A stretch of DNA of 64,000 bases from Acutalibacteraceae bacterium (GCA_045648745.1 JAZROM010000078.1:6374-70373), one strand, 5' to 3'; positions 16,245-38,161 are shown, counted from the first letter of the stretch. Numbers and translations are program-made. Notes: generated from the sequence alone by a model not told the origin.

Positions 16245-16263
16245 ATAAATACTCCTTGAGCAA

Positions 16264-17343: not shown

Positions 17344-17354
17344 GTTTATAGTTA

Positions 17355-18482: not shown

Positions 18483-18489
18483 AACTCCT

Positions 18490-19224
18490 TTACTTTTTTA
18501 TAATGATAACAGAAACATTATCATTGAGCATATTGAGATTTTTGCTATTGATGTTAAAAGTTTCTTTTAAAAGCATTTTTTTCATTTTTTTGGGACCTAA
18601 AAGCTCTAATCCGTCGGACATAACAACAAATTTATCATTTGCAGCACAATAACTTTCAAATATACTTACATCTGAATAACCGTATGAACCTAAACACTGG
18701 GTAAGACTGTGATGGTCTATTTCGTCTATTTGTTTTTCAGGGTAGCCATTGTCACGTTTTTGCTCAGCTACTGTGTGAGGTTTGCTTAACCGGATTAACT
18801 TTTTGTCTCTGATGATGTAAATGGGGCTATCCCCGATATTGTACGTGACAAATCTGTTGCCGTAGAAAACAAGAATACTTATTGTCGTACCGCCAATAGC
18901 GTTTTTCTTTGTCAGCTCATCGGAAATACGGCTCTGTGCTTTTTCTATTGCTTCAAGCACGCTTGTATCGATTGTTTCCCTGTCTGAATTAATATTGATT
19001 CTGTCACTTAGGGTTTCTGCTACTGTTTGAACTGCTATTCGGGAGGCTGTTTCTCCCATACTTTCACCACCGACTCCATCACATACTGCAAATACGCAAA
19101 TGTCCTCGTCGGTTTCCGTTTCAGAACTAAAAGCGATCATATTGGTATAAACGCAATTGCCTGCGAGCAGGCTGTCCTGATTGGTTTTTCGAGTTCCTTT
19201 AAAGCTAAGGACTTTAATATTCAT
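18490..19224 (-). CDS. PP2C-type Ser/Thr phosphatase (Stp/PrpC-like)
   Basis: The RBS aaggagag is present. Motifs are 'NQDS', 'VFAVCDGVGGESMGETAS', 'GGTT' and 'VVMSDGL'. Confidence 0.85.
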   Translation of the reverse strand: MNIKVLSFKGTRKTNQDSLLAGNCVYTNMIAFSSETETDEDICVFAVCDGVGGESMGETASRIAVQTVAETLSDRININSDRETIDTSVLEAIEKAQSRISDELTKKNAIGGTTISILVFYGNRFVTYNIGDSPIYIIRDKKLIRLSKPHTVAEQKRDNGYPEKQIDEIDHHSLTQCLGSYGYSDVSIFESYCAANDKFVVMSDGLELLGPKKMKKMLLKETFNINSKNLNMLNDNVSVIIIKK

Positions 19225-19267
19225 TTATTACATGCTCTCCTTTAGCTCAAAACAACACGATATATAA

Positions 19268-19296
19268 TAGTATAATATAAACACATTGCGTTTTCA
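19268..19296 (-). promoter_or_regulatory. Candidate internal sigma-A promoter for the PP2C-HTH-HTH-PP2C-kinase-kinase sub-operon
   Basis: On the minus strand: TTGAAA (19296-19291), a 17-nt spacer, then TATACT (19273-19268). It lies in the 225-nt gap upstream of the PP2C start at 19224. Confidence 0.4.
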
Positions 19297-19449
19297 ACAG
19301 ATTAATACGCTTGAAAGAATATATTTAGTTATTATAAGTTTTTACAGTACGAACGTGTTGTATTTGAGCTGGTTTTTAATAATTATACCATTTATAGACT
19401 TTCATAAAGAAAAAAAGGAAAACAAATTAAACTATTCTGTAAATTCAAG

Positions 19450-19980
19450 TCAAAAGACTCTTCTGTTAAAAAGCAACTCTCTTTCCAACAGAGTTTTGCA
19501 CCTCTTTGAAGAGAGCGGAGAGCGATTCTTTGCAATTACAACAGGTGAATCGCCTATCCAGACCACACGGGAATGCTTAAATGGAACTTTATCAACCCTT
19601 TTTCCTTTGTAGTACAATTGACATGAGGAATCACAGGCAACAAGCAATGGTCTTTTTGAAGAGCTTCTAATGTATGCATGCAGACCATGCACCTGATTGC
19701 CCGTTATAATTCTGAATGAAGCATCTTTTGAACATCCTATGGTAAAGTTATCATGTGCACAGGGTATGGCAACAGAATTAACAATGTTGCCGTTATTTTC
19801 TAACGAATAAATTCTCCAGTCATACCGTTCAAAGAAAATATTGTTCTCTTGGAGCGATGAACTGCTGGTTATACTCTCGGGATTATTTTGCAATGCTTTT
19901 TTTCTTCTGATTGACAGCAGGATTGCAATCAATCCTGCTGTCAGAGCAATAGTAGTAAGAATAATTTCTGTCCAATCCAT
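19450..19980 (-). CDS. N-terminally membrane-anchored FHA-like protein (divergent FHA)
   Basis: The RBS aggagg is present. The TM segment is 'IILTTIALTAGLIAILLSI'. The FHA-like core is 'FTIGCSKDASFRIITGNQVHGLHAYI...LYYKGKRV'. The pre-FHA block 'WRIYSLENNGNIV' is shared with the two other TM-FHA proteins. Confidence 0.6.
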   Translation of the reverse strand: MDWTEIILTTIALTAGLIAILLSIRRKKALQNNPESITSSSSLQENNIFFERYDWRIYSLENNGNIVNSVAIPCAHDNFTIGCSKDASFRIITGNQVHGLHAYIRSSSKRPLLVACDSSCQLYYKGKRVDKVPFKHSRVVWIGDSPVVIAKNRSPLSSKRCKTLLERELLFNRRVF

Positions 19981-19984
19981 GCAA

Positions 19985-21355
19985 TTAACCTCCTAATGTA
20001 TTGTTTCTGTTAACGTTTTCAAGAATATCATAAAGGTAAAGAGCACCGTCTTTAAAATCACCGCCAAACTTGTTTGTATAGTTAGCTGAAATTACAATCG
20101 TATAATCTTCAGTACAGGAGAGAAACGTTGCTCTGTCCGCTCCTGTTCCTGTTTCAATAGAATGACCGAGTTGAGCGGTACCGGTTTTAGCTGCGATGCC
20201 GTATGATTCAGGGATGTTGTAGTATTTAACCGCTGATTTCTGTAGTGTTTTCATCAGGGTGTTCATTGTATCTTTATCTGCGACCTGAGTAAGTTTTTCT
20301 GTTGAACCGGTGTAGGTCACTTTGTTATCGGAAATGATAGAATCAACAATGTAGGGTTTCAACATAGTGCCACCATTTGCAATAGACGACGCTATCATTG
20401 CAAGATGAATGCTGCTGATAAGGACTTTACCCTGCCCAAAGCTCGTAGCCGCGAAATTCGCAACAGATGTGTCATTGAGGCCGTGGGAAGACTTTATGGT
20501 TGTAAAATCAAGTTCAATGTCGTTGCCGATAAGAAATCGCTCACAGGTATTTCGGATTCCATAAGAACCGAGCTTCTGAGCATAGTGAATGAAATATGTA
20601 TTTGCGGAATAACCCAAGGCCTGTTCGAGATCGATGTTTGTGTACTCAACGCCTTTGAAGTTTGAGAATGTTGTATTTCCGACTTTAATTGTACCTTCTA
20701 CGCAGAGAGTCTCTTTATGCCAGTTATGTTCAATAATCGGAACAGAAAAGGCCGCTTTAATAACGCTTCCCGGAGCGAGTACTGTTTTCCAGTTCGGAAC
20801 AAGCGCTCCTTCGTGCGCATTTGCCTTTTCGATTGTTTTAGCCGAAATAGCGTTTACATCTAATTCATATCCGGAATTTGATGATGCAAGTGCAAGAATT
20901 CTGCCGGTCTTATTGTCTAGAATTACGACAGAAGCATCCTGCCCTTTAATTACATCATAAGCGGCGCATTGTAGTTCATTTATCGTTGTAAGTTTCAGCG
21001 TGGAGCCCTTGTTATCTTTTCCGGTTTCCTTCTTAAGCTCGTTATAAAAGGTGCTTCTGAGACCACTGCAACCAAGCATATTAGTATTATATCCGACAAG
21101 GGGAAAATAGGATTCAAAATTTACCACACCCGGAATGCCCGGTTCGGTTGCAAAACAGATTACTTCTCCGTTTGCATCAATGATATCGCCTTCAATGGAG
21201 CTGTTATATTGATCGGCAACCGCAAGTTCCTCTTTGATTTTATCCGCGGTTTCATCTACACCGGGGAAGTACGCATAACTCATAAGGGGAAAAACAATGG
21301 CAATTGCTGTAATACAAGCGATTACGGTACGAAAAAGCTTAAATCTGATATTCAT
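19985..21355 (-). CDS. Class B penicillin-binding protein (transpeptidase), short PbpA-like form
   Basis: The RBS aggagg and an N-terminal TM segment are present. Motifs are SxxK 'GSVIKAA', SxN 'YSANTY' and KTG 'AKTGTAQ'. Confidence 0.85.
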   Translation of the reverse strand: MNIRFKLFRTVIACITAIAIVFPLMSYAYFPGVDETADKIKEELAVADQYNSSIEGDIIDANGEVICFATEPGIPGVVNFESYFPLVGYNTNMLGCSGLRSTFYNELKKETGKDNKGSTLKLTTINELQCAAYDVIKGQDASVVILDNKTGRILALASSNSGYELDVNAISAKTIEKANAHEGALVPNWKTVLAPGSVIKAAFSVPIIEHNWHKETLCVEGTIKVGNTTFSNFKGVEYTNIDLEQALGYSANTYFIHYAQKLGSYGIRNTCERFLIGNDIELDFTTIKSSHGLNDTSVANFAATSFGQGKVLISSIHLAMIASSIANGGTMLKPYIVDSIISDNKVTYTGSTEKLTQVADKDTMNTLMKTLQKSAVKYYNIPESYGIAAKTGTAQLGHSIETGTGADRATFLSCTEDYTIVISANYTNKFGGDFKDGALYLYDILENVNRNNTLGG

Positions 21356-21371
21356 TATAGAGCCTCCTATG

Positions 21372-22775
21372 TTATCTGGTTAATGTAACTTTAATGTTTG
21401 TGGCAGCATCTTTAACCTTGTTATCCAGGTTAAATGAAAGGGATTTACGTTGTGTACTATATAAAACAAGTCCGACCAAAAACCAATTAATCACACCGGA
21501 GCTTTCTCCGGAGGCGATAAACGGAAGCACCACGCCTGTCAACGGAACAAGTCTGATATTGCCTCCAATTGAAACCATCGCAGAAGTAAAAATAATAATT
21601 CCGGCGATTAAAGCCATTGTATTTACAAAGGTATGATCAGGTTTACTTGCTGTTTTCTCATAATTCTTAACAGTTCTCCACAAGATCAGGGCAAACAGCA
21701 GAATTATGATGATACCGAAAATAATTCCCATTCGTAGAAGCAGAGCGGCAAAGGTGTAATCGTATCGTTCTACGGGGATGTGGATGACTTCATCGCTACC
21801 AAGCCACCCTCCTCGGATGATTGCCTTGTGAGCAATTGCGGGCTGGGAGTTAGGTTCAGGTGTAGTTGCGAAGTCTTTAAATCGCACAGAAATCTTTGCA
21901 AATTGTACGGACATGAATGAAACCAGCTTAGGAATAGCCTGTTTTGTCTCTAAAAGGCTTTTATACACTGAATGTGCAAGTGCAAGTATACCGACACCGA
22001 AGCAACCAAGACCTGTTACACCGCCGATGATTCCGAAAAGTGTCTTTTTATTATCAATAAGCAGTGTGTTGATCGCAATCCAACAGAGAAAAAGTATGAG
22101 AGCAGTGCCAAGTTCTGCACAAATTGCAAGGCACAAAGTGGTGAGGATAATATAAATGCAAGACCATAACCACTTTTTATTGAGTGACGAATTAAACAAT
22201 AACGCGAAGAAGAGGGCAAACAATGGTTTATGTACCTCTGTCAACTGGAACTGATGACTACCGATGGATAACCATGAGTGAGTTCCTTTCTGAGCAGGAA
22301 GAAGAAGGAGGATCGCGGTGATTGCAACCGTTGTTATGAGAATTAAAACAAGAAAAAGCTTTAACACAGAGGGCTTAATTTTCGAAAGAGGTTTAGCAAG
22401 AAACAACATAAACACAACGGCAACCAGACCAAGAAAGGTTGCAAGTGAAGTCTCTTCAAAGTTAGCTTTGAAATCAGTTTCGTTCGAATCTGCAATCAGA
22501 AGAAACTGAATATACAATCCGATTGTATAAAGAGCATTTGTAGCGAGCGTGATGAAAATATCACAGCCAGTATATGCTGAGTAGAACACAAACATCTGTG
22601 TTACGGTAACCGTTGCAAAAACAATCGGTACAGGAATAATAATGTCTTTTGAAGATACGAACATTTCCATCAGACAAGTAATGAGAAGGTTAATGATAGT
22701 TGCGGGGATCAACTGATTTTCTCTGAGGTTAAAAGAAAACCAGCTGAAAGAACGGTTTGTAAGGCGTTTGTTCAT
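21372..22775 (-). CDS. SEDS-family peptidoglycan polymerase (FtsW/RodA/SpoVE family)
   Basis: The RBS gggagg is present. The protein is polytopic, with 'QFQLTEVHKPLFALFFA' and 'PLTGVVLPFIASGESS', a variant of the P(L/F)(I/V)SYGGSS motif. It lies directly upstream of the bPBP gene. Confidence 0.85.
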   Translation of the reverse strand: MNKRLTNRSFSWFSFNLRENQLIPATIINLLITCLMEMFVSSKDIIIPVPIVFATVTVTQMFVFYSAYTGCDIFITLATNALYTIGLYIQFLLIADSNETDFKANFEETSLATFLGLVAVVFMLFLAKPLSKIKPSVLKLFLVLILITTVAITAILLLLPAQKGTHSWLSIGSHQFQLTEVHKPLFALFFALLFNSSLNKKWLWSCIYIILTTLCLAICAELGTALILFLCWIAINTLLIDNKKTLFGIIGGVTGLGCFGVGILALAHSVYKSLLETKQAIPKLVSFMSVQFAKISVRFKDFATTPEPNSQPAIAHKAIIRGGWLGSDEVIHIPVERYDYTFAALLLRMGIIFGIIIILLFALILWRTVKNYEKTASKPDHTFVNTMALIAGIIIFTSAMVSIGGNIRLVPLTGVVLPFIASGESSGVINWFLVGLVLYSTQRKSLSFNLDNKVKDAATNIKVTLTR

Positions 22776-22793
22776 AAACTTACCTCCCTGGAT

Positions 22794-23438
22794 TCAGCGA
22801 TTGACAGATACTCTGAACGGTCCGTTTTCATTTTTATTGTTATTGTCATTTTTCTCTACCGAAAATGTGAGATTATCGTCTACAGTTATATCTGCAGGCT
22901 TAATAATATCCTGTTTAAGTGAGTTTTTGAAAAAACAGATCGGTGTATCGGCCAGATATACAACCAACTGATGCTCAAGATCAAAAGCGTTTGTAACCGG
23001 AACGCCTTTGATATATGAACTGTTTAGAGACCCGTTGTCTTTGGCATAGAATCCGTTACTGTCTTCTGAAATGATAAGGTGAGTTTTTGAAACAAATTCA
23101 CTTGATTTAATTATAAAATCATCAGAGTTGCTTGAACCGATTGAAAATGCCTTAATTCCATTACCCTTGTCTTTGAGAACAACTTCTTGTGGCTTAGAGA
23201 TAATTCGTCCGGAGGAGTCAAGCTGACATACAGACCATCTTGCAAAAATGCTGGTTTCGTTGTCGGTGGGTTTGCGAAATTTGAATTTCGGATTTTTATC
23301 ACATCTTTTTGAAGAGAGATCACTCTTTTCGGAACCGGCATTCGCAAAGATTTCGGTAAAGTTGAGACCGTTGCCAAGGTTGGAAACAATGATGAATACA
23401 GCGATGATGATTGCGGCGATGAGAATAAGCTTTGTCAT
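22794..23438 (-). CDS. N-terminally membrane-anchored FHA-domain protein
   Basis: The TM segment is 'LILIAAIIIAVFIIV'. The FHA core is 'FSIGSSNSDDFIIKSSEFVSKTHLIISEDSNGFYAKDNGSLNSSYIKG'. The pre-FHA block is 'WSVCQLDSSGRII'. Confidence 0.75.
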   Translation of the reverse strand: MTKLILIAAIIIAVFIIVSNLGNGLNFTEIFANAGSEKSDLSSKRCDKNPKFKFRKPTDNETSIFARWSVCQLDSSGRIISKPQEVVLKDKGNGIKAFSIGSSNSDDFIIKSSEFVSKTHLIISEDSNGFYAKDNGSLNSSYIKGVPVTNAFDLEHQLVVYLADTPICFFKNSLKQDIIKPADITVDDNLTFSVEKNDNNNKNENGPFRVSVNR

Positions 23439-23596
23439 AATAGTGCCTTCTTTCTAAGTATTAATATTTGTTTATCGCAAGTATAATTATCTCACGAACT
23501 TAAAGGTGTAACTGAAAATAGGAATACTAACTTCAAAAAAATTAATATAGTGTGCAAAAAATGTTTAAGTCAGAAGCATCTGTAAAGATTATAAGT

Positions 23597-24475
23597 TTAG
23601 TACGTTTTATCAGCGATGCTTTCAAGATAGTCCTTATCCAGATAAATGGTTTCAATTAGTTCGATGTTGAAATTGAACTTACCTATGAAGAAGCAGTGCG
23701 AAATCTTGTCATAATCGTATTCTCCAGACTCATAATCGTATCCTGTGATGGATACAAGCAGATATTCTTTTTCTGTATTAAGACTCAGAATTTCGACTTG
23801 TGAATTAATATGAACTCCTGCCAGCGATGAAATTCCTTTGAAAGACTGGTTTAACAAATCCTCAGGTGACCAGTAATTAAAGGATTTGCCGTAATCAGGC
23901 GACACAAGTAACCAACCACCCAACGTAACAGGGGAGACTCCGGTTGAAAAAAGATTGTTTTTGCAAGATCTTATGGTGTGGCATTCTAACCCCGTTTCAT
24001 ACTCAGGATTTATTGACCAGGTTTTTCCATAGTCCGTAGTTCTCCAGACATATCCATATTTTTGATGCATTCCGGGATGCTCAATGTACTGAACAATACC
24101 TACACCGCTATCGTCGAAAAAGTATTCGACTGTCATATCATATAAGACGCCTGATGAATAGTCCTTTAAATCACTGTTGTATTCGACATCAAAATTTCCG
24201 AATTTTGCAGCAAAATAATTGTTGTATTCCAACATGATTTCTGCACTTTCAGGAGTAATATATACCGGGAGAAGCATATCTTTGTACACGTATCGGGTAT
24301 CGTGATTTTCTACATGAAGAAGATGTGTATATTCATTTTCATCTGATGTTGATGATTCTTCTTCAACAGAAGGGGTTGTTGGTTTGACAGACTTGATGCC
24401 ACAAATGGCGAGGGCTGAAACTACGACAAGAAAAAGACATACGATCAAAAAAATTGCTGTTTTATTGTTTTTCAT
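23597..24475 (-). CDS. Secreted or membrane-anchored protein with two Asp-box (BNR-like) motifs; function unknown
   Basis: The signal/anchor is 'TAIFLIVCLFLVVVSALAICG'. The Asp-box motifs are 'TTDYGKTWS' and 'SPDYGKSF'. Confidence 0.6.
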   Translation of the reverse strand: MKNNKTAIFLIVCLFLVVVSALAICGIKSVKPTTPSVEEESSTSDENEYTHLLHVENHDTRYVYKDMLLPVYITPESAEIMLEYNNYFAAKFGNFDVEYNSDLKDYSSGVLYDMTVEYFFDDSGVGIVQYIEHPGMHQKYGYVWRTTDYGKTWSINPEYETGLECHTIRSCKNNLFSTGVSPVTLGGWLLVSPDYGKSFNYWSPEDLLNQSFKGISSLAGVHINSQVEILSLNTEKEYLLVSITGYDYESGEYDYDKISHCFFIGKFNFNIELIETIYLDKDYLESIADKTY

Positions 24476-24518
24476 AAAATCATTCCTTTACATTATGTAA
24501 TATGGGGTGTACTTATCT

Positions 24519-25079
24519 CTAGCGGAGATTAAAGTTTTTTGTTTTACCGTCCGTATGGCTACCAGAGCCAGCAGTAGAAGAACCACCATAGAGTCTGGTT
24601 CCGTCAGAGAAGAACTCGGGTTCAAAAACATAATTTTTCATAAATGCAATGTACGTGTCTCCAAGACAAAGTACTTTTTTGTCTTCGAGCGGAATAAGAC
24701 TTTTTACACGCTCTCCTTTGAAAAACGTACCGTTGGAAGATTCGTTATCAATTGCAAAATATTCGCCGTTTTTCTTCAGCACAACAAGGTGGCAGTTGTC
24801 CACATAGTGACTCTTAAGCCTGAACTGGCAGTCGGATGAGGTGCCGATTGTAAAAACGTCGTCATTGTCAAGGTTGATGGTTGCTCTGTTTGTACGACCG
24901 TTTCTGACGATTCTTTTTCCGTTCTTGTCGAGCTCATAGACAACCCATTCAGCAGGATCGGGGGATCGGTTGCTTGTGTTACACTGTTTTTTGAGGTGTT
25001 TAGTGAGCCAAACGGCCATGCCGACTATGGCAGCTGAAAGAATGACGATAAAGATTTCGGGATAGATGACTGTTTTCAT
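24519..25079 (-). CDS. N-terminally membrane-anchored FHA-domain protein
   Basis: I prefer the ATG at 25079 (RBS aaggtg 6 nt upstream) over the GTG at 25088. The TM segment is 'IFIVILSAAIVGMAVWL'. The FHA core is 'FTIGTSSDCQFRLKSHYVDNCHLVVLKKNGEYFAIDNESSNGTFFKGERV'. The pre-FHA block is 'WVVYELDKNGKRI'. Confidence 0.8.
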   Translation of the reverse strand: MKTVIYPEIFIVILSAAIVGMAVWLTKHLKKQCNTSNRSPDPAEWVVYELDKNGKRIVRNGRTNRATINLDNDDVFTIGTSSDCQFRLKSHYVDNCHLVVLKKNGEYFAIDNESSNGTFFKGERVKSLIPLEDKKVLCLGDTYIAFMKNYVFEPEFFSDGTRLYGGSSTAGSGSHTDGKTKNFNLR

Positions 25080-25425
25080 GTTTTTCACCTTTCTTTCTTG
25101 TTTCAGGAAAAGATTTCCTTGTAAAAATTATAAAACAGAATAAAAGAAACAATAAAAAATAGGAATATAAAACAGAAAAACTGATATTGATTGAGAACAA
25201 CATCAGTTTTCAGAAGGTTTCAGATTTAGGCTATCTTTGAAATACAACTGCAAAAAGCTTACCGCATCAGCGATTTCTTTGTCAGTTGCACAGGTTCATT
25301 GCAGTCTGCCCGATAACGTGAGGAGTTATCAGAGATTACGAAGATTTCAAATTGCATTCCGTAAATCAGAGAACTTTAAAATCCAACAAACAACAAAGGT
25401 TTTTAAGTTGTTTTCATAGATAATA

Positions 25426-25836
25426 TTATATTACATCATTACTTGTTTTCGGCTCCTTAAAAAGCTTATATTGCTTTCTGTAGAAAATACGAGTGATTAA
25501 ACCCAGGACAATTTGCTCGATAGCAAACAATATCGCATATATAATAAATCCGGCAAATACACTGGTTGCAACGATATCATAATCAAAGAAGGATGCCTCA
25601 GATATCATCTTAACAAGAGAGATGTTTATCGGAATGGTTGTAAATGTTGCTATAACAAACATCCAAAGGTTTTCTCGATGTTTAAACACGGGTATTTTAA
25701 GTATAAGAAGCATACCGAGTGCTATTATTGTAAAAAGGATTACGGAAGTATAATAAGTTGCAATTGCCGATAAAATTGCAGGTACAGTTACTAACAGTAA
25801 AAATTTTACAGAATTAAATGTGTTTTTCTTTTTCAT
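25426..25836 (-). CDS. Small polytopic membrane protein (about 4 TM segments), unknown function
   Basis: The RBS agaggtga overlaps the end of the upstream gene. Four hydrophobic segments are visible, and there is a 1-nt gap to the S2P-like gene. Confidence 0.6.
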   Translation of the reverse strand: MKKKNTFNSVKFLLLVTVPAILSAIATYYTSVILFTIIALGMLLILKIPVFKHRENLWMFVIATFTTIPINISLVKMISEASFFDYDIVATSVFAGFIIYAILFAIEQIVLGLITRIFYRKQYKLFKEPKTSNDVI

Positions 25837-25837
25837 T

Positions 25838-26818
25838 CTAAATCACCTCTAATATGCACAAAACATTCCATACAAACAGTGCAGGAACAGTTAGTCGTAA
25901 AACCTGGAAAATACACGCACTTGCGATAATGGCATAACCGGCCAAGCCTGTATTCAAAACCTTTTGTCTTTTTCTTTTATTCCAAACAAGTCCACGTGAT
26001 TTGCTTATAAAACTAATAGTATTATCACCGAGAAGCTCACAGATTACGTTGGCTCCATCGATTCCGTTGTTGAAAACAAGATTGACGAATCCTAAAAAAA
26101 CGTTTTGAATAGCGGCACCAAAGAATGCTTCTCCCCAAAAATCTCCTCCGAAACTGGAAAGAAAAAGAAAGAGACCACAGAGGAAAAGATTAGTTTCAAT
26201 ACCCGCCAGATTGACCTGAATTCTCTGGAATCGACTTTTCACTTGTTTAGCATCAATAAGTGCATAGCCAGCGGGCATAAAATTTAATATACCTATCCCG
26301 ATTTCAAAGAATTTGCCTCCAGGACAGGCGAGCGCAGCACAAGCGTGACTGATTTCATGCAGAAAAAGGCCAAGGATAGTTCCCAGAGTCAATCCGGTAT
26401 ATATTCCGCCATCACCATAATTGAAATGCGTACGGAAATAATAGATGCCAAAGACGAGCATGGGTAAAAATGATATTTGTAAAGTCTTATTATAAAACCA
26501 AGCCAATAAACGCATGGCGCGTGTTATTCTGTGCGGTATGTATATGCTGTAAAGAAAGGTTCCGGTGGTTTTTAATAAAACCCTGTTTGTTCTTATGCAG
26601 TCAAAGTCAGCCAGAAGTTTCAAACGATCACGAACAGCTGCTTCACTGAGGGTTTTATCGATACTACGAGGATTTGTTATTCCGTCGAGCCTTCTTCCCC
26701 AACGAACAATTTCTATAGGCAAGCAGTATGATTCTTCCAGAAGATAATTAGTGATTTCAACCAGCGCATCATCTTTCCTTTTTATTGTACAGTAGCTGTT
26801 CCATTTGGGATATTTCAT
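25838..26818 (-). CDS. Site-2-protease/M50-like intramembrane zinc metalloprotease with an N-terminal soluble domain
   Basis: The RBS aaggagg is present. An HExxH motif 'LHEISHACAAL' sits in a hydrophobic segment, and a downstream 'FNNGIDGANV' matches the DG motif of S2P. The roughly 100-aa N-terminal domain has a PqqD/RRE-like flavour ('YCLPIEIVRWGRRLDG'), but that call is low confidence. Confidence 0.6.
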   Translation of the reverse strand: MKYPKWNSYCTIKRKDDALVEITNYLLEESYCLPIEIVRWGRRLDGITNPRSIDKTLSEAAVRDRLKLLADFDCIRTNRVLLKTTGTFLYSIYIPHRITRAMRLLAWFYNKTLQISFLPMLVFGIYYFRTHFNYGDGGIYTGLTLGTILGLFLHEISHACAALACPGGKFFEIGIGILNFMPAGYALIDAKQVKSRFQRIQVNLAGIETNLFLCGLFLFLSSFGGDFWGEAFFGAAIQNVFLGFVNLVFNNGIDGANVICELLGDNTISFISKSRGLVWNKRKRQKVLNTGLAGYAIIASACIFQVLRLTVPALFVWNVLCILEVI

Positions 26819-26848: not shown

Positions 26849-26879
26849 GCATGCTTGTACAGGTTGTGTACAAGCATGC
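26849..26879 (-). promoter_or_regulatory. Perfect 13-bp stem-loop in the Lon to S2P intercistronic region
   Basis: The structure is gcatgcttgtaca-ggttg-tgtacaagcatgc. It lies between the Lon stop (26890) and the S2P RBS, and no U-tract follows on the minus strand. Confidence 0.5.
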
Positions 26880-26889: not shown

Positions 26890-29800
26890 TTAGGCGATTT
26901 TTCTGTGAAGCTCGGTGAAGATATTTTCAATGACCTGAGAAACATGATTAATTGGGATAACCTCAACGGAAAACATGTCCAGATCATCTTTTGAAAGCTC
27001 TTTATAGTTTCCTTCAGGAATAAACACCTTTGAGCAACCGGACTGTTCTGCGGCCTGAATCTTCGCAATAGTGCCACCGATGTTGAAAACATAACCATTA
27101 CCGTTAATTTCACCGGTATACGAAACATTTTCAACAATAGGAGTGTTGAAAACTGCAGAAAGCAGTGACATAAGAATTGCGACACCAGCAGAGGGGCCGT
27201 CCTTCTGAACTGCACCTTCGCCAAAATGAATGTGAATGCCCTTGTTTGAGAGGATTCCCTTGTAGTGGCGTTTTATATAGCTGATTGCAAGCTTTACACT
27301 GTCAACAGTACTTTCTTTAGGAAGACCCGTAATAGTCAACGAGTTTTCGTCAGGAATAAGCATAGTTTCAACAGAAAAAGCCATGCCGCAGTTGTTACCG
27401 GTAACAGCAAGAGCTTTTGAAAGACCGGGGTAATTTTCATAAGGAAAGTTACCTCTTTCTGCAGGAGGATTGCCGAGAACAGACTTGATATCATCGGCAC
27501 CAATGATAAGCTTTCTTTCATCGGAAGAGAACAACTTGTCTCTTATGAGTCTCTTGATAGCCTTGTCAGCATCACGAACACCGAAGGAACGACAGTATAC
27601 TTCGACAATAAGCTTCTGTGCTTCCTTAGAAAAGGTTACTTCGTAACCTGTAGGAACAAGTTCCGAAACAGCCTTGGGAATAATATAATTATGGATGATT
27701 TCAGCCTTTTCTTTTTCTGTGTAGCCTTCAAGATGAATAACTGTAAATCTGTCAAGAAGAACAGAATCGATTGCAGAAAGATCATTAGCTGTTGCAATAT
27801 ACATAACTCCTGATAAGTCAACAGGCTGTCCGATAAAACTGTCTGTGAATTCGGAAGAATCATCAAGCAGATCAACCAAAGCATTAGTTGCCGAAACTCC
27901 TTCTCGTGAACCCATTTTATCAATCTCATCAAGGTGAACAATACCTTTTGATGTTTTCATTTTGTGAACAGCTCTGATAATCATTCCGGCGTCTGCACCG
28001 ATATATGATAATGAATGACCTTTAATTGATACATCATCGGAAATACCGTTTAAAGAAATTTTACAGTATGCTGAGTTGCATGCCTTGGCAATACTCTTAA
28101 CGATAGATGTTTTTCCGATACCGGGAGGTCCTACAAAAAGCAGTCTCGTTGCAGACAAAGGTCTGCTATTAAGAGCACAAACATTAAAAATCTGTGCAAC
28201 CTCTCTCTTTACATTCTCCATACCGTAGTGAGTTGTATTAACTTCGGCATAAAAATGTTCTTTATCGAAACAAGAAAATGCATTACCGACAGGAATAAGA
28301 TTCACAAGATAATTAAGCTTTTTCTCGTATTTCTCTTTTACCTCGCTGTCAAGGTTTTCCCGTTTAAGCTTCGCAATAAGGTATTTTATTTCTTCTGAGA
28401 TTTCAGGAGAATAAAGCGATTTGTTACGACGATGAATAATAGCCGGAGAATTCTTGTTAACAGTACTGTCAAGTGTTGCGTCAACAAAGGCTTTGTCAAC
28501 GATGATCTGGTTTCTCGTTCCTGCCGAATCCCATATTGAAAGCACTCTTCTTACGATACTTTCAATACCTTTTTTAAGATCTCTTGCGCCATCGTCTTCA
28601 CAAAAATTCTGTGCAATATATTTTATTACATCATCATTAATGATAATCTCTTCAGCACCAATATCAAAATCCTTGAGAATGGAAGGTGAAATGAATTTCT
28701 GTGCAATTTCAACCTTTTCGTCTTCTTCATAATCATCAACATTGATAACTGTAAATCTGTTAAGAAGATTTGCAGGGATGGTATCAGTTGAATTAGCAGT
28801 TGCGATGAAGATGGTGTTTTGTGTATTTATGTATGTCCCAAGAAAAGCATCCTTGAAATAATGCTCATCTGAAAGAGCATCATTGAATGCTTTGCTTACG
28901 GTTCCGCCTTCTTTAGTGGATTCATAGGATTTATCATATTCATCAAGTCCGAAAACTACTCGTGTGGTACCAACCTTGTAATAGTTCTTAACTACCTCAC
29001 CACAATCTGAAGCATCATAGTGCGGTGCATCTCCCAAAACATCAACTACTGATGTTGAGGATCCGAGCGGGATTACAAAGAAAGGAATTCCAAGCACTTC
29101 CGCAACAGCTTTCATAATAGCGGTTTTTCCGACTCCCGGGGAGCCTACAAGAAGAACGCAAAAGCCTTTCTTGTTACTGTACTTAGACGCCACAATCGCT
29201 TCAGCAAGCTTTTCTTTGAGTTTGTTGTGTTTGTGTAAAATACTGTCAAGTTTCGCAATGATTTCTTCTTTAGTCATTGAAATGTCCTGTGAAACACCCT
29301 GATTGATATTAAGGATATATGAAAGTCTTCTTGTAGCTCTTGTTTTGTTTGCATAAGTCAGACTTCTGCATTCTTCAAACATGGCTTCAATATCCCTTTG
29401 CTGCTGAGGAGTGTATGTGTTTCTGCACATATCAAACTTGAGCCTGAGCGTTTCTGTATCTGTAGAAGGAACAGGTGAGTTTTTTACTGTTGCAAACTTT
29501 TCACCGAAGAGCTGTTCCTTGAATGATTCCTGAACGCTTGCCGGAAGATTAAGGAACATATTCATCGCATTAAGCTTTTTTTCAACAGTATCAAAAGCAT
29601 TAAACATGTCGTAAAACTCTTTTGATACAACTGCTTTTGCAACACATTCAGTGTTGATTCTACACATAATATATACCGTTTCACCCGCAATAATATATTT
29701 CTGAGGCATAATTGTATCTGATGAGATTTTAGCCTCAAGAGGGTGATTCTTAAAAAGAAGTTTCATGGACATGTCAGCAGATAAAACAAGATTGCTTTCG

Positions 29801-29982
29801 TAGATATGCTCAAATACGATATAGCCTGATTTGTCAAGAGTTGTATTCGTGCATTTTGTGTTTGTTTCAGAACTTATCTGCGACTGAATCAGCTCGTTTG
29901 CGACACGGTCGAGAATAGCTACAACGTTTTCTTCCGGAAGTGTATTGATAAGTTTGATAAAATGCTCTATTTTGTCCATCAT
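26890..29982 (-). CDS. Lon-family protease with a unique N-terminal region, two tandem Lon-type AAA+ modules and a C-terminal Ser-Lys protease domain
   Basis: The RBS gaggagg is present. The first AAA+ module has 'LLVGSPGVGKTAI...GLDEYDK...IATANSTDTIPANLLNRF'. The second has 'LFVGPPGIGKTSI...HLDEIDKMG...IATANDLSAIDSVLLDRF'. The protease domain has 'KDGPSAGVAILMSLLSA' and 'GGTIAKIQAA'. Confidence 0.85.
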   Translation of the reverse strand: MMDKIEHFIKLINTLPEENVVAILDRVANELIQSQISSETNTKCTNTTLDKSGYIVFEHIYESNLVLSADMSMKLLFKNHPLEAKISSDTIMPQKYIIAGETVYIMCRINTECVAKAVVSKEFYDMFNAFDTVEKKLNAMNMFLNLPASVQESFKEQLFGEKFATVKNSPVPSTDTETLRLKFDMCRNTYTPQQQRDIEAMFEECRSLTYANKTRATRRLSYILNINQGVSQDISMTKEEIIAKLDSILHKHNKLKEKLAEAIVASKYSNKKGFCVLLVGSPGVGKTAIMKAVAEVLGIPFFVIPLGSSTSVVDVLGDAPHYDASDCGEVVKNYYKVGTTRVVFGLDEYDKSYESTKEGGTVSKAFNDALSDEHYFKDAFLGTYINTQNTIFIATANSTDTIPANLLNRFTVINVDDYEEDEKVEIAQKFISPSILKDFDIGAEEIIINDDVIKYIAQNFCEDDGARDLKKGIESIVRRVLSIWDSAGTRNQIIVDKAFVDATLDSTVNKNSPAIIHRRNKSLYSPEISEEIKYLIAKLKRENLDSEVKEKYEKKLNYLVNLIPVGNAFSCFDKEHFYAEVNTTHYGMENVKREVAQIFNVCALNSRPLSATRLLFVGPPGIGKTSIVKSIAKACNSAYCKISLNGISDDVSIKGHSLSYIGADAGMIIRAVHKMKTSKGIVHLDEIDKMGSREGVSATNALVDLLDDSSEFTDSFIGQPVDLSGVMYIATANDLSAIDSVLLDRFTVIHLEGYTEKEKAEIIHNYIIPKAVSELVPTGYEVTFSKEAQKLIVEVYCRSFGVRDADKAIKRLIRDKLFSSDERKLIIGADDIKSVLGNPPAERGNFPYENYPGLSKALAVTGNNCGMAFSVETMLIPDENSLTITGLPKESTVDSVKLAISYIKRHYKGILSNKGIHIHFGEGAVQKDGPSAGVAILMSLLSAVFNTPIVENVSYTGEINGNGYVFNIGGTIAKIQAAEQSGCSKVFIPEGNYKELSKDDLDMFSVEVIPINHVSQVIENIFTELHRKIA

Positions 29983-30038: not shown

Positions 30039-30800
30039 TTAAGAAATGTCGCTTTTGCCTTCTTCATCCGGAATTGCGAGGAGCTGATCAAAAAGACTGC
30101 CCGGGACAACATCAGAAGAATCTTCTGATGATTCCTCTTCCTTTTTTGCAAAAAGACTGGATGCAATGGCATCTCTGCGTTCAGCTCTTTTACGAATCCA
30201 CTCTGAAAATCCGGGAGGTTCGGGAAGGTTTATGTGATGAAAATCTTCTTTATCTTCATTTTCGTTTTCGCCGAACGGGAAGTTATCAGGTAAATCTTCT
30301 GTGAGCTGCTTTGCAATTTTCTCGATATGTTTTTTAATTACTTTTTCAACATCAGCTTCATCAGGTTCAAGAAGCTTCATGTGAGCGAGCTTTTCGAGAG
30401 GGATGTTAAATGCATCAAGAATTTTAACACATTCGCCTTCCATAATTTTGAACATTAAAACACTGAGTGGTGCATCATCAAAACGCTGTTCTGTGTGAAT
30501 ATGAAGGTTTCCGTTAGGTGCAATACGGAGATTGCAACATTTGTAGTTTGCGTTTATCTTGTCAATGTATTCCCCAATCTGTGAACGGGCCTCTTTAGGG
30601 CAATGAATTGAAGGGGAGATTTCCATAATGACCACTTCTGCGCTTTTATCGATTCTTGTGATTACAGAGTAGGTTCTGTCTGATGTATCAATGCGGGCTG
30701 TAAAGCCTTCACCATCCATCATTTTGGCGGTGTATTTGTGATCTGATATTGCATAATAAGTTTCACCGTTATGCATTGTTTCGTTAAAGTATTTTGACAT
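30039..30800 (-). CDS. Hypothetical cytoplasmic protein with an acidic C-terminal tail (N-domain vaguely YbjN/chaperone-like)
   Basis: The RBS aaggaga is present. There is no TM segment. The C-terminal 90 aa are rich in D, E and S. The fold assignment is only a guess. Confidence 0.55.
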   Translation of the reverse strand: MSKYFNETMHNGETYYAISDHKYTAKMMDGEGFTARIDTSDRTYSVITRIDKSAEVVIMEISPSIHCPKEARSQIGEYIDKINANYKCCNLRIAPNGNLHIHTEQRFDDAPLSVLMFKIMEGECVKILDAFNIPLEKLAHMKLLEPDEADVEKVIKKHIEKIAKQLTEDLPDNFPFGENENEDKEDFHHINLPEPPGFSEWIRKRAERRDAIASSLFAKKEEESSEDSSDVVPGSLFDQLLAIPDEEGKSDIS

Positions 30801-30937: not shown

Positions 30938-31303
30938 TTAGTCTGAAAGCACATTGGGCATTTTACCGTTTTTAAGTGCAATATAATGTAAAATCAAATA
31001 GACGAGCATTTCTGAATCGGAAAGAATTCCTTCTTCATCATAAATTTCACAATTTACGATGGATGAAATGATAGCAATAAGAGGTTTAGTGTTTTTTTCG
31101 TCTTTCATTACCGCAAAGGGCTGGTTGGCGATTCTTGTGAATGCAATGGATTCGTTTCTTTTAATGCCGGAGGACATACTCAAAATATCGTGTATTTTTT
31201 TGAACATAATCAAGTCTTCAAAATTAAGCATACAGTCGATTTCGAGAAGGGTGTTTGTGATGCTATCGAAGGTGTAGGTGTTGATAATTTCTTTGATTGT
31301 CAT
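30938..31303 (-). CDS. Hypothetical small cytoplasmic protein (121 aa), first gene of the minus-strand supercluster
   Basis: The RBS aaggaga is present. I recognised no motifs. Confidence 0.55.
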   Translation of the reverse strand: MTIKEIINTYTFDSITNTLLEIDCMLNFEDLIMFKKIHDILSMSSGIKRNESIAFTRIANQPFAVMKDEKNTKPLIAIISSIVNCEIYDEEGILSDSEMLVYLILHYIALKNGKMPNVLSD

Positions 31304-31802: not shown

Positions 31803-31960
31803 GCCACTAACGATATAGTGAAAAGAAAATTTACCCGTTTCAGACCCATAAAAGGCGGTTTCGGGTCGTTGGATGTACCGAAACCGCAAAAAGCTGTATA
31901 ATAATTATGGGTTATTTTTGCCTTATATTCAAAAGTTTTTTAAACGAAAGGAAGTCTAAA

Positions 31961-34258
31961 ATGAAACACATTTTTAAAAAAGGCATCGCAATACTGCTTT
32001 CAATACTGTGTGCTTTTAACCTTGCTGTTGTGTCCTTTGCGGAGGAAACGGTGGTGACGGGCACCTGTGGTGAAAATGCAAGCTGGTCATTCAACACTGT
32101 TTCGGGGTTGTTGGTTATCAGTGGAGACGGGGAGATGAAGAGCGAATCAAATAATAATTATATGCCCTGGAATAAATATAAAGAAGAAGTCAAGGAAGTT
32201 GTAATTGAAAATGGTGTTACAACTATATGTAAAAATGCTTTTAGCGGTTGCAAAAATCTTGAAACGGTTACGATTCCAAACAGCATTATGGCTATAGATA
32301 CTTATGCTTTTTTCCATTGTGAGTCTCTTGTTGAAATAACAATTCCTGATAGCGTAGTTAGTATTGGCAACTATGCTTTTGACAATTGTGTTAGTCTTAC
32401 GATGATTTCTATAGGTAAAGGCGTTGCTGATATGAAATACACCTCGTTTCTTAGATGCAAAAGTCTTACAGATATCACGGTAGACAGCGAGAACTTGAAT
32501 TTCTCAAGTGAAGATGGTGTTTTGTATAACAAAGATAAGACAAAACTTATAAAATATCCGGTAGGAAACAGCAGAACAGCTTTTGAAATCCCCGAAGATG
32601 TTGAAGATATTGAAATCGATGCTTTTTACGGTTGTAGTTATCTGGTTAATGTTAAAATTCCGGAAGGCGTAGTGAATATTGGATTCGCTGCATTTTATAA
32701 TTGTGATAATATAACAGGCGTAACTTTGCCTAAAAGTATCAAGAGTATAGCCGAATCTGCTTTTTCAGACTGTAATGCACTTAAAGATATATACTATTCC
32801 GGTGATTTAACAAGTTGGTGTTCAAATAATTTTGAAACATTCCTTTCTCAATCAACAAACTATTATATTGACGGAGAACTTGTTTCAGGCGATTTGGTTT
32901 TACCCGAGGGTATTACATATATTGGAAGCAACGTGTTTAATCACTGTATAGGTATTACAAATGTAATAATACCGAACAGTGTTACAAGTGTTGGTGAAAG
33001 TGCTTTTCGCGACTGTATTTGGCTTAAAAAAGTCCATATTCCTGATAATGTTAATTCTGTCGGGGAGGGGTGTTTTGTTGGTTGCTACTATTTATCAGAT
33101 GTAAAATTACCTGATGCTATTGTTGAGATAAAGGATTTTACCTTTTCAAGCTGTGATAAACTCAAACAAATCACGATTCCTGAAAATGTAACGAGTATTG
33201 GCGAATATGCTTTCCAATATTGTAACGCGTTAACAAATATTACTATACCGGAAAGTGTAATTGAAATTGGAAAAGGCGCATTTAGATATTGCCCCAATCT
33301 TGCCACGACCTATTATACCGGTACTGAGGAACAATGGAATGCAGTTTCCATTGGCACCGAAAACGAACCTCTGACTCGTAATGTCGTTTTCAATTATGGT
33401 AAACCTTCCGATATCTGCGGTGAAAATGCAACGTGGGCTTTTGACGAAGCAAGCGGAGCTCTCACAATCTCAGGTACAGGGGCAGTCAGTGATTACTCCA
33501 ACTGGAACGATATTGCAAATGCAGTTGCTTATGTTGAAATAGGCAACGGTATCGCATCCGTGGGCGAAAATGCATTTAACGGATTCAGTTCACTTAAAGA
33601 AGTGTATATGGCTGAAAGTGTATCCGAGCTTGGCAACAATGCTTTTACAGGTTGTCCGAAGCTTGCAACTGTAACAGCACTTTCGGATGATTTGAGTTTC
33701 ACCAATGCCTTTTCTGGCAATGATTCACGTCTGTTTTTCGTTGCAAAAGCAGGTTCAGGAACATACACTGCCTTCAAATCGGCAGGCTTTACTGTTAACG
33801 GAATAAGCAGCGACAAGGAAAAAGACGGTCGCAAGGTGCTTTCATTCGACGGCAAAACAACCATATATCAGAAACTTGATTATAACTATATTTCAAATCT
33901 GATTGCTGACAATTCTGATACATATTATTTGTATTTCGACAAGATAACCTTTGAGGGAATAGCTCCCGATATAATTATTATTGACGAAGAAAATCTTGAC
34001 AGTGCAGAACAATATTTTACTCTTAACGAGGTTTATATCAGCGTTTCTGTTAACGGAAAAACAGTTTCTCTTCCTGAGCTTGTGCAACTGCTTCAGGATG
34101 AAGATGCCGACGGAATTATAAGCTTTGAAGAGAAGGAAGGCGAAACATTTTTTGAAATGCTTTCGGATTTCTTTGAAGAAACGGTCGGGGAATTTGTTAC
34201 ACAGGCGTTCAAGGTAATCAAAACCGTTATAAATGCAATACGCAAACTTTTTAAATAA
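31961..34258 (+). CDS. Secreted BspA-type LRR surface protein with a Phe-rich C-terminal helix
   Basis: The start was re-picked at 'MKHIFKKGIAILLSILCAFNLAVVSFAEE' (RBS gaaaggaag). The LRR unit 'IP.SV..IG..AF..C..L' occurs many times, and 'CGENA.W.F' caps occur twice. The C-terminus is 'FFEMLSDFFEETVGEFVTQAFKVIKTVINAIRKLFK'. Confidence 0.85.
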   Translation: MKHIFKKGIAILLSILCAFNLAVVSFAEETVVTGTCGENASWSFNTVSGLLVISGDGEMKSESNNNYMPWNKYKEEVKEVVIENGVTTICKNAFSGCKNLETVTIPNSIMAIDTYAFFHCESLVEITIPDSVVSIGNYAFDNCVSLTMISIGKGVADMKYTSFLRCKSLTDITVDSENLNFSSEDGVLYNKDKTKLIKYPVGNSRTAFEIPEDVEDIEIDAFYGCSYLVNVKIPEGVVNIGFAAFYNCDNITGVTLPKSIKSIAESAFSDCNALKDIYYSGDLTSWCSNNFETFLSQSTNYYIDGELVSGDLVLPEGITYIGSNVFNHCIGITNVIIPNSVTSVGESAFRDCIWLKKVHIPDNVNSVGEGCFVGCYYLSDVKLPDAIVEIKDFTFSSCDKLKQITIPENVTSIGEYAFQYCNALTNITIPESVIEIGKGAFRYCPNLATTYYTGTEEQWNAVSIGTENEPLTRNVVFNYGKPSDICGENATWAFDEASGALTISGTGAVSDYSNWNDIANAVAYVEIGNGIASVGENAFNGFSSLKEVYMAESVSELGNNAFTGCPKLATVTALSDDLSFTNAFSGNDSRLFFVAKAGSGTYTAFKSAGFTVNGISSDKEKDGRKVLSFDGKTTIYQKLDYNYISNLIADNSDTYYLYFDKITFEGIAPDIIIIDEENLDSAEQYFTLNEVYISVSVNGKTVSLPELVQLLQDEDADGIISFEEKEGETFFEMLSDFFEETVGEFVTQAFKVIKTVINAIRKLFK

Positions 34259-37273: not shown

Positions 37274-38161
37274 ATGAAAAAGTTATTATCCGTTATGTTG
37301 GCAATCTTGTGTATGATGAGCCTTACGGTTGCATCATTTGCAGCGGGGAATTTATATGATGACAGTCAGGACCTGACATGGACACTTGAAAACGGTACAC
37401 TCACAATCACAGGTGAGGGTGAAATGGCTGATAAAAACGGCGGTGAAGACTGGACACAGGGATATGCCGCTGACATAAAAAAGATTGTTATAACTGACGG
37501 TATAACACGTATTGGTAAAAATGCGTTTGGCAGAACATTGTTCTATGTATATGACCACCCAATCAATTGGAATTGTGAGAATCTTGAAGAGGTTCAGATT
37601 GCTGAAGGCGTAGAGTCAATTGGCGAAGGAGCTTTCGGCTCAGCAACATCTCTCAAAACGGTCTACATCCCATCGAGTATGAAAGAAATTGAAGTTGACG
37701 CTTTCGGTGACTGCACAGCCATTAAGGATGTTTATTTTAACGGTACTCCGGAGCAGTGGGTAGCTCTTAAACTTAAAATCGCTGACAATAATGATTATCT
37801 TGTAAATGCAGAAGTTCACTTCCCGGGTGAAGATGATGAGAATGAAAAAGTCGGTAAGGTCAACTCTGTATCGATTGGCGATATTTCAATTAATTACAAG
37901 GCTTCAGCAAAAATAGAATGTAACGTCAACGCAGATGCAGGCGTGAAGTATACTGTTAAATATTCTTCATCAAATCCTTCAGTTGCAACAGTTGACGGCA
38001 ACGGAAACGTTAAAGCAACAGGCACAGGCGACGCAACAATTACCTGTACCGTAACAGATGAATACGGCAACACCGTTTCTGATACCTGCGAAGTAAGTGT
38101 CAGCTATGCATGGTGGCAGTGGATTATTGTTATCGTTCTTTTCGGATGGATCTGGTATTAA
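37274..38161 (+). CDS. Secreted LRR plus Big_2 protein with a C-terminal hydrophobic (Trp-rich) TM anchor
   Basis: The signal peptide 'MKKLLSVMLAILCMMSLTVASFAAGN' is nearly identical to that of 34484. The Big_2 segment is 'YSSSNPSVATVDGNGNVKATGTGDATITC'. The C-terminus is 'YAWWQWIIVIVLFGWIWY'. Confidence 0.8.
   Translation: MKKLLSVMLAILCMMSLTVASFAAGNLYDDSQDLTWTLENGTLTITGEGEMADKNGGEDWTQGYAADIKKIVITDGITRIGKNAFGRTLFYVYDHPINWNCENLEEVQIAEGVESIGEGAFGSATSLKTVYIPSSMKEIEVDAFGDCTAIKDVYFNGTPEQWVALKLKIADNNDYLVNAEVHFPGEDDENEKVGKVNSVSIGDISINYKASAKIECNVNADAGVKYTVKYSSSNPSVATVDGNGNVKATGTGDATITCTVTDEYGNTVSDTCEVSVSYAWWQWIIVIVLFGWIWY

Follow-up and report, generated by a model that had tools for sequence, protein, structure and literature searches.

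A double-AAA+ Lon protease from gut Clostridia, apparently a sizeable and undescribed Lon lineage, and the gene cassette in which it is found

Lon is among the best-studied AAA+ proteases, and its classification into LonA, LonB, LonC and LonBA has one ATPase domain per chain, the current description being "an ATPase (A) domain followed by a protease (P) domain" (PMC9569914). A stretch of 64,000 nucleotides (nt) from an Acutalibacteraceae bacterium (GCA_045648745.1 JAZROM010000078.1:6374-70373; the whole stretch is called the window here) carries a gene, Lon2, that an earlier note based on the sequence alone had read as a Lon protease with two tandem AAA+ modules and an N-terminal region of its own. 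Is this chain really built from two Lon modules, are both of them active, and what might it do together with the genes beside it? The open reading frame lies exactly where it had been placed and encodes 1030 amino acids (aa), and every motif that had been quoted is present in the translation, which contains 'FGLDEYDKS', 'VHLDEIDKMG', IATANSTDTIPANLLNRF, IATANDLSAIDSVLLDRF, 'KDGPSAG' and 'AKIQAA'. Its parts are as follows.

26890-29982, minus strand: double-AAA+ Lon protease gene (Lon2), 1030 aa (open reading frame; Pfam AAA twice, Lon_lid twice, Lon_C; AlphaFold2 model)
29461-29982, minus strand: family-specific N-terminal region, residues 1-174 (no Pfam or NCBIfam match; AlphaFold2 model)
28549-29460, minus strand: repeat unit 1, residues 175-478, pre-AAA helical bundle and AAA+ module D1 (hhalign against unit 2)
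27541-28458, minus strand: repeat unit 2, residues 509-814, pre-AAA helical bundle and AAA+ module D2 (hhalign against unit 1)
26917-27504, minus strand: Lon S16 protease domain, residues 827-1022, with LonA-type 'PS' Ser931 and Lys974 (PF05362)

The presence of two complete Lon-type AAA+ modules followed by a Ser-Lys protease domain was borne out by Pfam, BLASTP, profile-profile alignment and searches with the first module alone. Pfam recognizes two AAA domains (PF00004), two Lon_lid domains (PF22667) and one Lon_C domain (PF05362, E 6e-35) at residues 827-1022. D2 and the protease match LonA structures at E ~1e-70, and structure prediction, which the earlier note had suggested, gave a confident AlphaFold2 monomer model (50-sequence alignment, mean predicted local distance difference test score, pLDDT, of 85) in which the C-terminal ~530 residues, AAA+ plus protease, superpose on LonA with a template modelling (TM) score of ~0.8 normalised to the target (Foldseek). 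Structure and profile searches of solved chains found none that spans both modules. The general Lon models describe the chain only in part: TIGR00763 (endopeptidase La) matches in two stretches with 482.5 bits, against a curated cutoff of 608, PRK10787 reaches 339 bits against a cutoff of 891, and the NCBIfam LonB and LonC models match the protease part only (TIGR02903 covers just residues 726-1019). The protein is predicted to be soluble, since the sole hydrophobic segment detected by hydropathy is a strand of the AAA core. Lon2 is almost certainly, then, a soluble LonA-derived chain composed of an N-domain, D1, D2 and a Ser-Lys protease.

The relationship between the two modules was addressed by aligning the halves of the protein, as had also been proposed. 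Residues 241-525 and 526-825 are 33% identical over 203 aa (BLASTP, E 1e-37), and a profile-profile comparison of sub-alignments with hhalign rendered residues ~175-478 colinear with ~509-814 over 302 columns (probability 100%, E 4.5e-67). The segments preceding each Walker A motif can also be aligned by themselves (175-271 with 509-607, probability 97.9%, E 3.9e-13), and the helical segment in front of the first AAA+ core aligns with its counterpart ahead of the AAA+ core of the LonA crystal fragment 6n2i (query 5-307, chain 14-316). These alignments indicate that the duplicated unit consists of the LonA helical bundle together with the AAA+ alpha/beta domain and the lid, and, because residues 175-271 belong to the duplicated helical unit, that only residues 1-174 are specific to the family. 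The first module, which might have turned out not to be AAA+ at all, is of the Lon type: the best solved relatives of residues 175-510 are all LonA (E 1e-29) and TIGR00763 matches at E 1.4e-44, whereas similarity to other AAA+ clades is far weaker (midasin 1e-15, ClpX 7e-7). A neighbour-joining tree built with the modules of 14 family members and 7 outgroup sequences of the Lon family separates the first modules (M1) from the second (M2) in two clades that branch in parallel, which points to a single old duplication at the base of the family with both copies retained. Mean identities are 34% between M2 and LonA, 29% between M1 and LonA and 29.5% between M1 and M2, so that the first copy is indeed the more diverged one, as the motifs had suggested. 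These sequence comparisons fit a single duplication at the family base after which both copies were kept and M1 evolved faster.

The earlier note had also described an N-terminal region of about 250 aa as novel and as lacking the LonA N-domain. The absence of that domain was confirmed, but the novel part is limited to residues 1-174, which no Pfam or NCBIfam model matched. PF02190, the LonA N-domain, is absent from Lon2; the canonical LonA matches in the parallel search carry it. The AlphaFold2 model of residues 1-272 (pLDDT 81, and ~90 in its beta domain) has helices at 4-33, then six strands forming a beta domain (42-120), then helices at 121-158, and remains helical from there up to 269. 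A Lon N-domain is not among the Foldseek matches of this model, the best of which have E 0.06 (PDB) and 0.03 (BFVD) with TM <0.25, and assignment to the LonA N-domain or to any other known fold was rejected on these values. Only faint echoes of small beta barrels (OB, cold-shock, RuvA-I) were seen.

The architecture is not restricted to the window. A word-indexed search yielded ~55 clusters at 90% identity whose members, 1,000-1,050 aa long, share this arrangement, canonical LonA appearing there with ~33% identity and only over the C-terminal ~45%. Searching 1.84 billion representatives (50% identity) by HMMER with a full-length Lon2 profile gave at least 72 clusters in which one and the same match covers D1, D2 and the protease, and in 50 of these 72 the N-terminal region was matched from profile position 100 or earlier. 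Canonical LonA begins at ~418 bits, below the 72, and matches only from profile position ~470-540. A scan of 185,579 species genomes, which used two peptide patterns only and whose count is therefore a floor, recovered 6 loci, all in uncultured Clostridia (four Acutalibacteraceae, one Lachnospiraceae and one "Clostridia bacterium" from sheep colon), the closest being 81% identical to the window Lon. The window thus probably stems from an Acutalibacteraceae-like organism of rumen or gut, with which its dockerin and leucine-rich-repeat genes and the bovine-gut read sets are in agreement. No phage or plasmid record with the architecture was found, look-up returned no record of the exact window protein, and no near-identical public sequencing run was found, the best one sharing 12% of words and the runs being bovine or other gut DNA. 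The survey of distribution that had been recommended thus shows something far commoner and more varied than one odd protein, D1 being often degenerate and some members lacking the protease.

The possibility that this is a common and already named Lon subfamily was not supported either. The sole name found for the family in any source is "AAA family ATPase [Clostridiales bacterium]"; neither a dedicated NCBIfam or other curated model nor a solved structure for a double-AAA+ Lon was found, TIGR00763 remains below its cutoff, and no account of a double-AAA+ Lon turned up in our literature search. Rotanova's group has described a resemblance of the LonA HI(CC) domain to part of the first module of ClpB, and nothing beyond it (PMC5509003). 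The double-AAA+ Lon is a real, sizeable and unnamed lineage of the Lon family, and apparently an undescribed one within the collections searched.

The catalytic residues were followed in an alignment of the window clade comprising 50 relatives that are 33-82% identical. In D1 these are the Walker A K286, the Walker B pair D347/E348, the sensor-1 N397, the Arg finger R409 and the sensor-2 R467, all of them invariant except E348, which is kept in 49 of the 50 sequences. Their D2 counterparts K624, D685, E686, N733, R745 and R803 are invariant, and so are P930, S931 and K974 of the protease. The pore-loop-1 aromatic is Y or F in every sequence at D1 position Y322, and at D2 position Y660 it is Y in 48, with one F and one W. 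Since the ATPase motifs, the pore-loop aromatics and the Ser/Lys dyad are all conserved, both AAA+ rings of the window clade look catalytically active as judged from their sequences. By analogy with other AAA+ machines, the window clade probably has two stacked translocating rings that are both active.

The wider family is less uniform. Across the 72 representatives hardly any change is seen in D2 and the protease (K624, N733, S931 and K974 kept in all, E686, R745 and R803 in 71, D685 in 67), but the six-residue catalytic set of D1 is intact in only 25 and its Walker-B Glu is lost in 40, figures of degeneration that may be somewhat inflated by misalignment of the most distant members. The Walker A Lys of D1 is nevertheless kept in 56 of the 72 and the pore-loop aromatic in 71. 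This pattern is what would be expected if D1 were mainly a structural, regulatory or substrate-holding ring, as are D2 of NSF and D1 of Pex1/Pex6, with nucleotide binding stabilising the hexamer, D1 still offering a pore-loop aromatic and D2 carrying out translocation; the intact motifs of the window clade would then represent an ancestral state that is not functionally required. However, the D1 catalytic residues are invariant or nearly so in the window clade in spite of its wide range of identities, which implies purifying selection on hydrolysis, and protease-less relatives also keep D1 intact. We consider a mainly structural D1 unlikely for this clade.

These protease-less relatives are nine further representatives in which both modules are intact and the chain ends at the D2 lid. 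They include P0044, P0183, P0184, P0185, P0189, P0193 and P0227, and one lies at 7001-9511 of locus L013; there, in P0044, the protease is truly absent, because the next gene encodes a histidyl-tRNA synthetase. Their common C-terminus is [KR][KR](I/C)GF, and its IGF recalls the IGF/IGL loops that ClpX and ClpA use for docking on ClpP, a hint of a switch from a fused to a docked protease.

What Lon2 might do is approached through its neighbours, four genes of the window forming a compact cassette with Lon2 as the second.

30039-30800, minus strand: upstream acidic-tail partner, 253 aa (19 homologue clusters, alignment)
26890-29982, minus strand: Lon2, as above
25838-26818, minus strand: M50/S2P-like HExxH membrane protein, 326 aa (PF02163 in orthologues)
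25426-25836, minus strand: small polytopic membrane protein, 136 aa, ~4 hydrophobic segments (hydropathy; conserved after the M50-like gene)
25176-25211, minus strand: terminator-like hairpin downstream of the cassette (consensus scan only)

The gaps between consecutive genes are 56, 71 and 1 nt, and terminator-like hairpins span 25176-25274, after the gene for the 136-aa protein, a position that fits one transcription unit from 30800 to 25426. The 71-nt gap between Lon2 and the M50-like gene contains a perfect palindrome with a 13-bp stem, GCATGCTTGTACA...TGTACAAGCATGC, at 26849-26879, which might serve in attenuation, RNA processing or protein binding. When the window was compared with eight other loci, the shared genes were these four and no others, and they adjoin Lon2 homologues that are 38-81% identical. 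A 121-aa minus-strand open reading frame at 30938-31303, just upstream of the partner, has no family match and no homologue in the related loci.

The M50-like gene lies directly downstream of Lon2 in L004 and L006-L010, followed in the same loci by the 136-aa membrane protein (E 3e-7 to 1e-52). Its product has the features of a peptidase M50 or site-2 protease (S2P): HExxH, AGxExN and N...(I/L/M)DG are invariant in all orthologues, PF02163 is matched by 16 of 17 of them (best E 5e-10; the window copy, with 21.5 bits, falls below the 27.2 cutoff), and the family profile matches the M. jannaschii S2P structure 3b4r at E 0.007. Its cytoplasmic residues ~1-90 (25838-26110 region) carry an invariant 'L.G...P' motif (L44, G46, P50); a PqqD/RRE-like winged helix was considered for this N-terminal part ('LDGxxxP') and found no Pfam support in the 17 orthologues scanned. 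In three loci the M50-like gene is replaced by one for a HExxH protein of a second type, which is 359-367 aa long, anchored in the membrane by transmembrane segments near its N-terminus, and weakly SprT-like in three orthologues, always below threshold.

L005 12589-13668: second HExxH membrane protein
L012 10520-11599: second HExxH membrane protein
L014 5901-7004: second HExxH membrane protein

The upstream partner, whose family comprises 19 clusters all annotated as "hypothetical", has a folded N-domain of ~150 aa, then an acidic linker and, in its tail, the conserved motifs LPEPPGFSEWIRKR and SLFDQLLAIPDEE; the tail peptides of the partner are EPPGFSEWIRKR and SLFDQLLAIPDEE. Members adjoin Lon2 in the window, L001, L005, L008 and L010, and a distant version is found at L013 beside the protease-less P0044. 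The conserved tail motif 'EPPGFSEW(L/I)RKR' recurs there as EPPDFDSFVKRL, and its retention next to a relative without protease points to a contact of the partner with the N-domain or the ATPase part of Lon2 rather than with the protease, as far as sequence conservation can suggest. The PDB profile search detected no sequence similarity of the partner to solved structures, giving acidic low-complexity matches only, and a YbjN/type III secretion chaperone-like fold, guessed from the pattern of the sequence, was dropped for want of support in it. At L004 an unrelated upstream protein has a sub-threshold YbjN match (E 0.054), and hhalign does not connect this protein with the partner family (probability 2.6%).

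The acidic-tail protein and the S2P-like protease that had been pointed out as neighbours are therefore present and recurring, but they do not always accompany the Lon gene, the partner family being found at 6 of 13 loci and a membrane HExxH protein of either type at 10 of 13. This association bears on the idea that Lon2 is a housekeeping quality-control Lon in an unusual format and that its neighbours are unrelated to it. The conserved, LonA-like D2 and protease and the absence of any other Lon within the 64-kb window would agree with such a role. The four genes, however, travel together across homologues down to 38% identity, the substrate-binding N-domain of LonA is missing, variants without protease exist, and the scan, limited as it was to its patterns, recovered the gene in only 6 of 185,579 species genomes, all of which makes a housekeeping role very unlikely.

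The evidence tips, if narrowly, towards a three-tier hexameric double-ring protease that works together with intramembrane cleavage. Lon2 would form a hexamer in which D1 is stacked on D2 and D2 on the protease chamber, a geometry taken from the monomer model and from analogy with Lon and double-ring AAA+ machines. The N-terminal beta domains would crown the entry and serve as a receptor; pore loops of D1 (Y322) would grip the substrate and hand it over to those of D2 (Y660), which would feed it to the chamber (S931/K974). With both rings hydrolysing ATP, the enzyme could be a stronger or more processive unfoldase than a single-ring Lon. With regard to the cassette, it is possible, though rather doubtful, that it constitutes a pathway resembling regulated intramembrane proteolysis (RIP), a proposal made by analogy. 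The M50/S2P-type metalloprotease would clip a membrane-embedded target, possibly with the help of the small polytopic membrane protein, and the double-ring Lon would extract and destroy the released or cytoplasm-exposed remainder, much as ClpXP finishes RseA after RseP. The upstream partner could be, by its layout, an SspB-like tethering adaptor, or equally the regulated substrate itself.

Several observations weigh against this model. Because at least one of the D1 catalytic residues is gone in 47 of the 72 representatives and at least three are changed in 39 (counts open to the same inflation by misalignment), ATP hydrolysis by D1 is, on sequence grounds, inessential for the basic function of the family. 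The stacking of the rings is derived from a monomer model and analogy. The cassette encodes neither a sigma nor an anti-sigma factor, nor anything else that would be an obvious RIP substrate, and the partner genes are not universal: L001, L011 and L013 lack an adjacent HExxH membrane protein, and the upstream partner is missing from more than half of the loci.

The surroundings of the cassette vary from locus to locus. In three metagenome-assembled genomes of Acutalibacteraceae (L006-L008) an SNF2-type helicase (~1070 aa) and a pair formed by a MoxR-like AAA protein (AAA_3) and a DUF2201 vWA/metallopeptidase lie ahead of the cassette. A ~990-aa HD-domain protein is found upstream in L006 and L007, and in L008 it is downstream and encoded by the opposite strand. 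Such a neighbourhood has the look of a defence island. Other loci are surrounded by sugar-utilisation genes or, at L012, by Fic, helix-turn-helix (HTH) and RelA/SpoT-like HD genes. A calcineurin-like metallophosphoesterase of ~225-242 aa lies within a few genes of Lon in six loci and is absent from the window.

L006 612-9316; L007 591-9280; L008 2955-8501 and 15271-18258: SNF2/MoxR-DUF2201/HD neighbourhood
L005 14842-15519; L006 13924-14619; L007 13931-14620: calcineurin-like metallophosphoesterase
L010 18699-19373; L012 12991-13719; L013 5297-6013: calcineurin-like metallophosphoesterase

It could also be the case that the cassette is a conflict or anti-phage module of the abortive-infection type, in which Lon, as an effector or as a sensor-controlled protease, would destroy a partner or proteins of the host upon infection, and the membrane proteins would act as effectors. 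The distribution is patchy and the surroundings are variable and island-like (at L004 a large kinase and an integrase fragment, the SNF2 helicase, HD protein and MoxR plus vWA/DUF2201 genes of L006-L008, the genes mentioned for L012), which is in line with this, as is a weak PADLOC similarity to the AAA+ proteins DolB, PDC-M37B and IetA. Those PADLOC matches, however, are of the generic AAA+ kind (DolB, PDC-M37B, IetA and BrxL, E 1e-8 to 1e-17), so that membership in a known defence system was rejected; moreover, no partner gene matches any defence model, phage and plasmid records lack the architecture, and some loci lie amid sugar-metabolism or sporulation genes. A role in defence appears quite unlikely.

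Three loci have, at a distance of a few kb from the cassette, genes of the kind found in pathways for ribosomally synthesised and post-translationally modified peptides (RiPPs), namely genes for Radical-SAM and YcaO-nitroreductase proteins and for short Cys-rich peptides, maybe by coincidence.

L005 6299-7839: RiPP-like genes near the cassette
L013 11209-16511: RiPP-like genes near the cassette
L014 16680-17297: RiPP-like genes near the cassette

Together with weak NCBIfam matches of the M50-like protein to maturation proteases, one to the daptide-type HExxH protease (E 1e-9) and one to YydH/LiaK (E 0.002), they might be taken to mean that the cassette matures or disposes of a RiPP peptide and that the M50-like enzyme is a leader or precursor protease, as in the daptide and epipeptide pathways. 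Both matches nevertheless fall well short of the curated cutoffs (38 against 300 bits), neither a precursor peptide nor a modifying enzyme is encoded in the window, and Radical-SAM and similar genes are common in Clostridia. To our knowledge, no RiPP pathway uses an AAA+ protease. This explanation is extremely unlikely.

At 11456-25088, on the minus strand, the window encodes two FHA proteins, an FtsW/RodA protein and a penicillin-binding protein (PBP) transpeptidase, along with two phosphatases of the PP2C type and two Ser/Thr kinases, one of which has MORN repeats, interspersed with unannotated genes at 16264-18482, 19450-19980 and 23597-24475. This cluster resembles the actinobacterial fhaA-fhaB-pstP-rodA-pbpA-pknA-pknB operon, yet the genome belongs to the Clostridia. 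The earlier note had considered the cassette as a dedicated proteolytic arm of this supercluster, a view that did not hold: the kinase, PP2C, FHA, FtsW and PBP genes have no match at any other locus (tblastn, E <= 1e-6), and the cluster was rejected as part of the unit. A loose association is possible, for L010 has a weak PP2C match (blastp, E 1.6e-6), with an FHA-FtsW fusion and a PP2C gene upstream, and L004 has a kinase. The window also encodes large surface proteins with BspA-type leucine-rich repeats at 1-5373, 6232-10464, 31907-34258 and 37274-38161. The first two have Dockerin_1 matches (one of them below the cutoff) and the first also a transglutaminase core; dockerin-bearing proteins of this type suggest a cellulosome-bearing, Ruminococcus-like organism.

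Considered as a whole, these results lead us to propose, though only tentatively, that Lon2 is the first recognised natural 'type II' Lon. It would represent a new subfamily of at least 72 clusters that arose by internal duplication, with two homologous rings stacked above the proteolytic chamber and occurring in three states, namely with both rings active, with D1 degenerate, or with the protease lost and a C-terminal [KR][KR]IGF. Together with a membrane metalloprotease and a tethering partner, it would be dedicated to the extraction and destruction of membrane-associated targets in gut Clostridia. If this is true, a stacked double-ring Lon would be a natural experiment on what a second ring adds in grip, processivity and regulation. 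It would likewise bear on how tandem-ring machines originate by internal duplication and on how one ring decays to a non-catalytic scaffold, a decay of which the sister clades show every stage, and the cassette would be a compact four-gene system for coupling membrane cleavage to cytoplasmic degradation, present in abundant but uncultured gut and rumen Clostridia.

With respect to known systems, Lon2 belongs to MEROPS family S16 by its C-terminal Lon proteolytic domain and Ser-Lys dyad. The hallmarks of an A-type active site are a Pro before the catalytic Ser and the Ser-Lys spacing of S679/K722 in E. coli Lon (PMC9569914). Both are found in Lon2, which has 'DGPSAG' and the same spacing of 43 positions between S931 and K974, and it further shares with LonA (E. 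coli Lon, human LONP1) the D2 and protease domains, the Lon-type lid, the pre-AAA helical bundle and solubility. It differs from LonA in its second complete unit of helical bundle plus AAA+, in a TIGR00763 score below the subfamily cutoff, and in having the 174-aa unmatched region in place of the PF02190 N-domain and the coiled-coil HI(CC) domain.

In LonB a membrane-anchor insert separates the Walker motifs and an Asp precedes the catalytic Ser (PMC9569914), whereas in Lon2 61 residues separate K286 from D347 and, likewise, K624 from D685, with no hydrophobic insert, and a Pro precedes the Ser. LonC has a degenerate ATPase, and LonBA is membrane-bound and has no long N-region (PMC9569914; PMC3391209). 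Lon2 keeps all Walker, sensor and Arg-finger residues in both modules, and, although LonB, LonC and LonBA also have an S16 protease domain fused to an AAA+-like module, none of them has two such modules.

The closest precedent for the proposed pathway is RseA, in which S2P cleavage by RseP is followed by degradation by the AAA+ protease ClpXP with the adaptor SspB (PMC10202637). The DegS/RseP/SspB-ClpXP system and the cassette have in common an S2P-family metalloprotease, a cytoplasmic AAA+ protease and, in the succession of folded domain, linker and tail of the partner, the layout of SspB. Here, by contrast, the genes are linked in one cassette that has no sigma/anti-sigma pair, and the protease is a double-ring Lon instead of ClpXP.

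Finally, Lon2 carries two AAA+ modules in one polypeptide, as tandem (type II) AAA+ proteins do, and would function as a LonA to which a second ring in the manner of ClpA or p97 has been added. Like ClpA, ClpC, ClpB/Hsp104, p97/Cdc48, NSF and Pex1/6, it has a pore loop in each module, and its family, like these unfoldases, contains members that differ in whether one ring is degenerate. ClpA and ClpC dock onto a separate ClpP, while the protease of Lon2 is fused in the same chain. The D1 and D2 modules of Clp/Hsp100 proteins belong to different AAA+ clades, whereas both rings of Lon2 derive from one Lon-type module by internal duplication.

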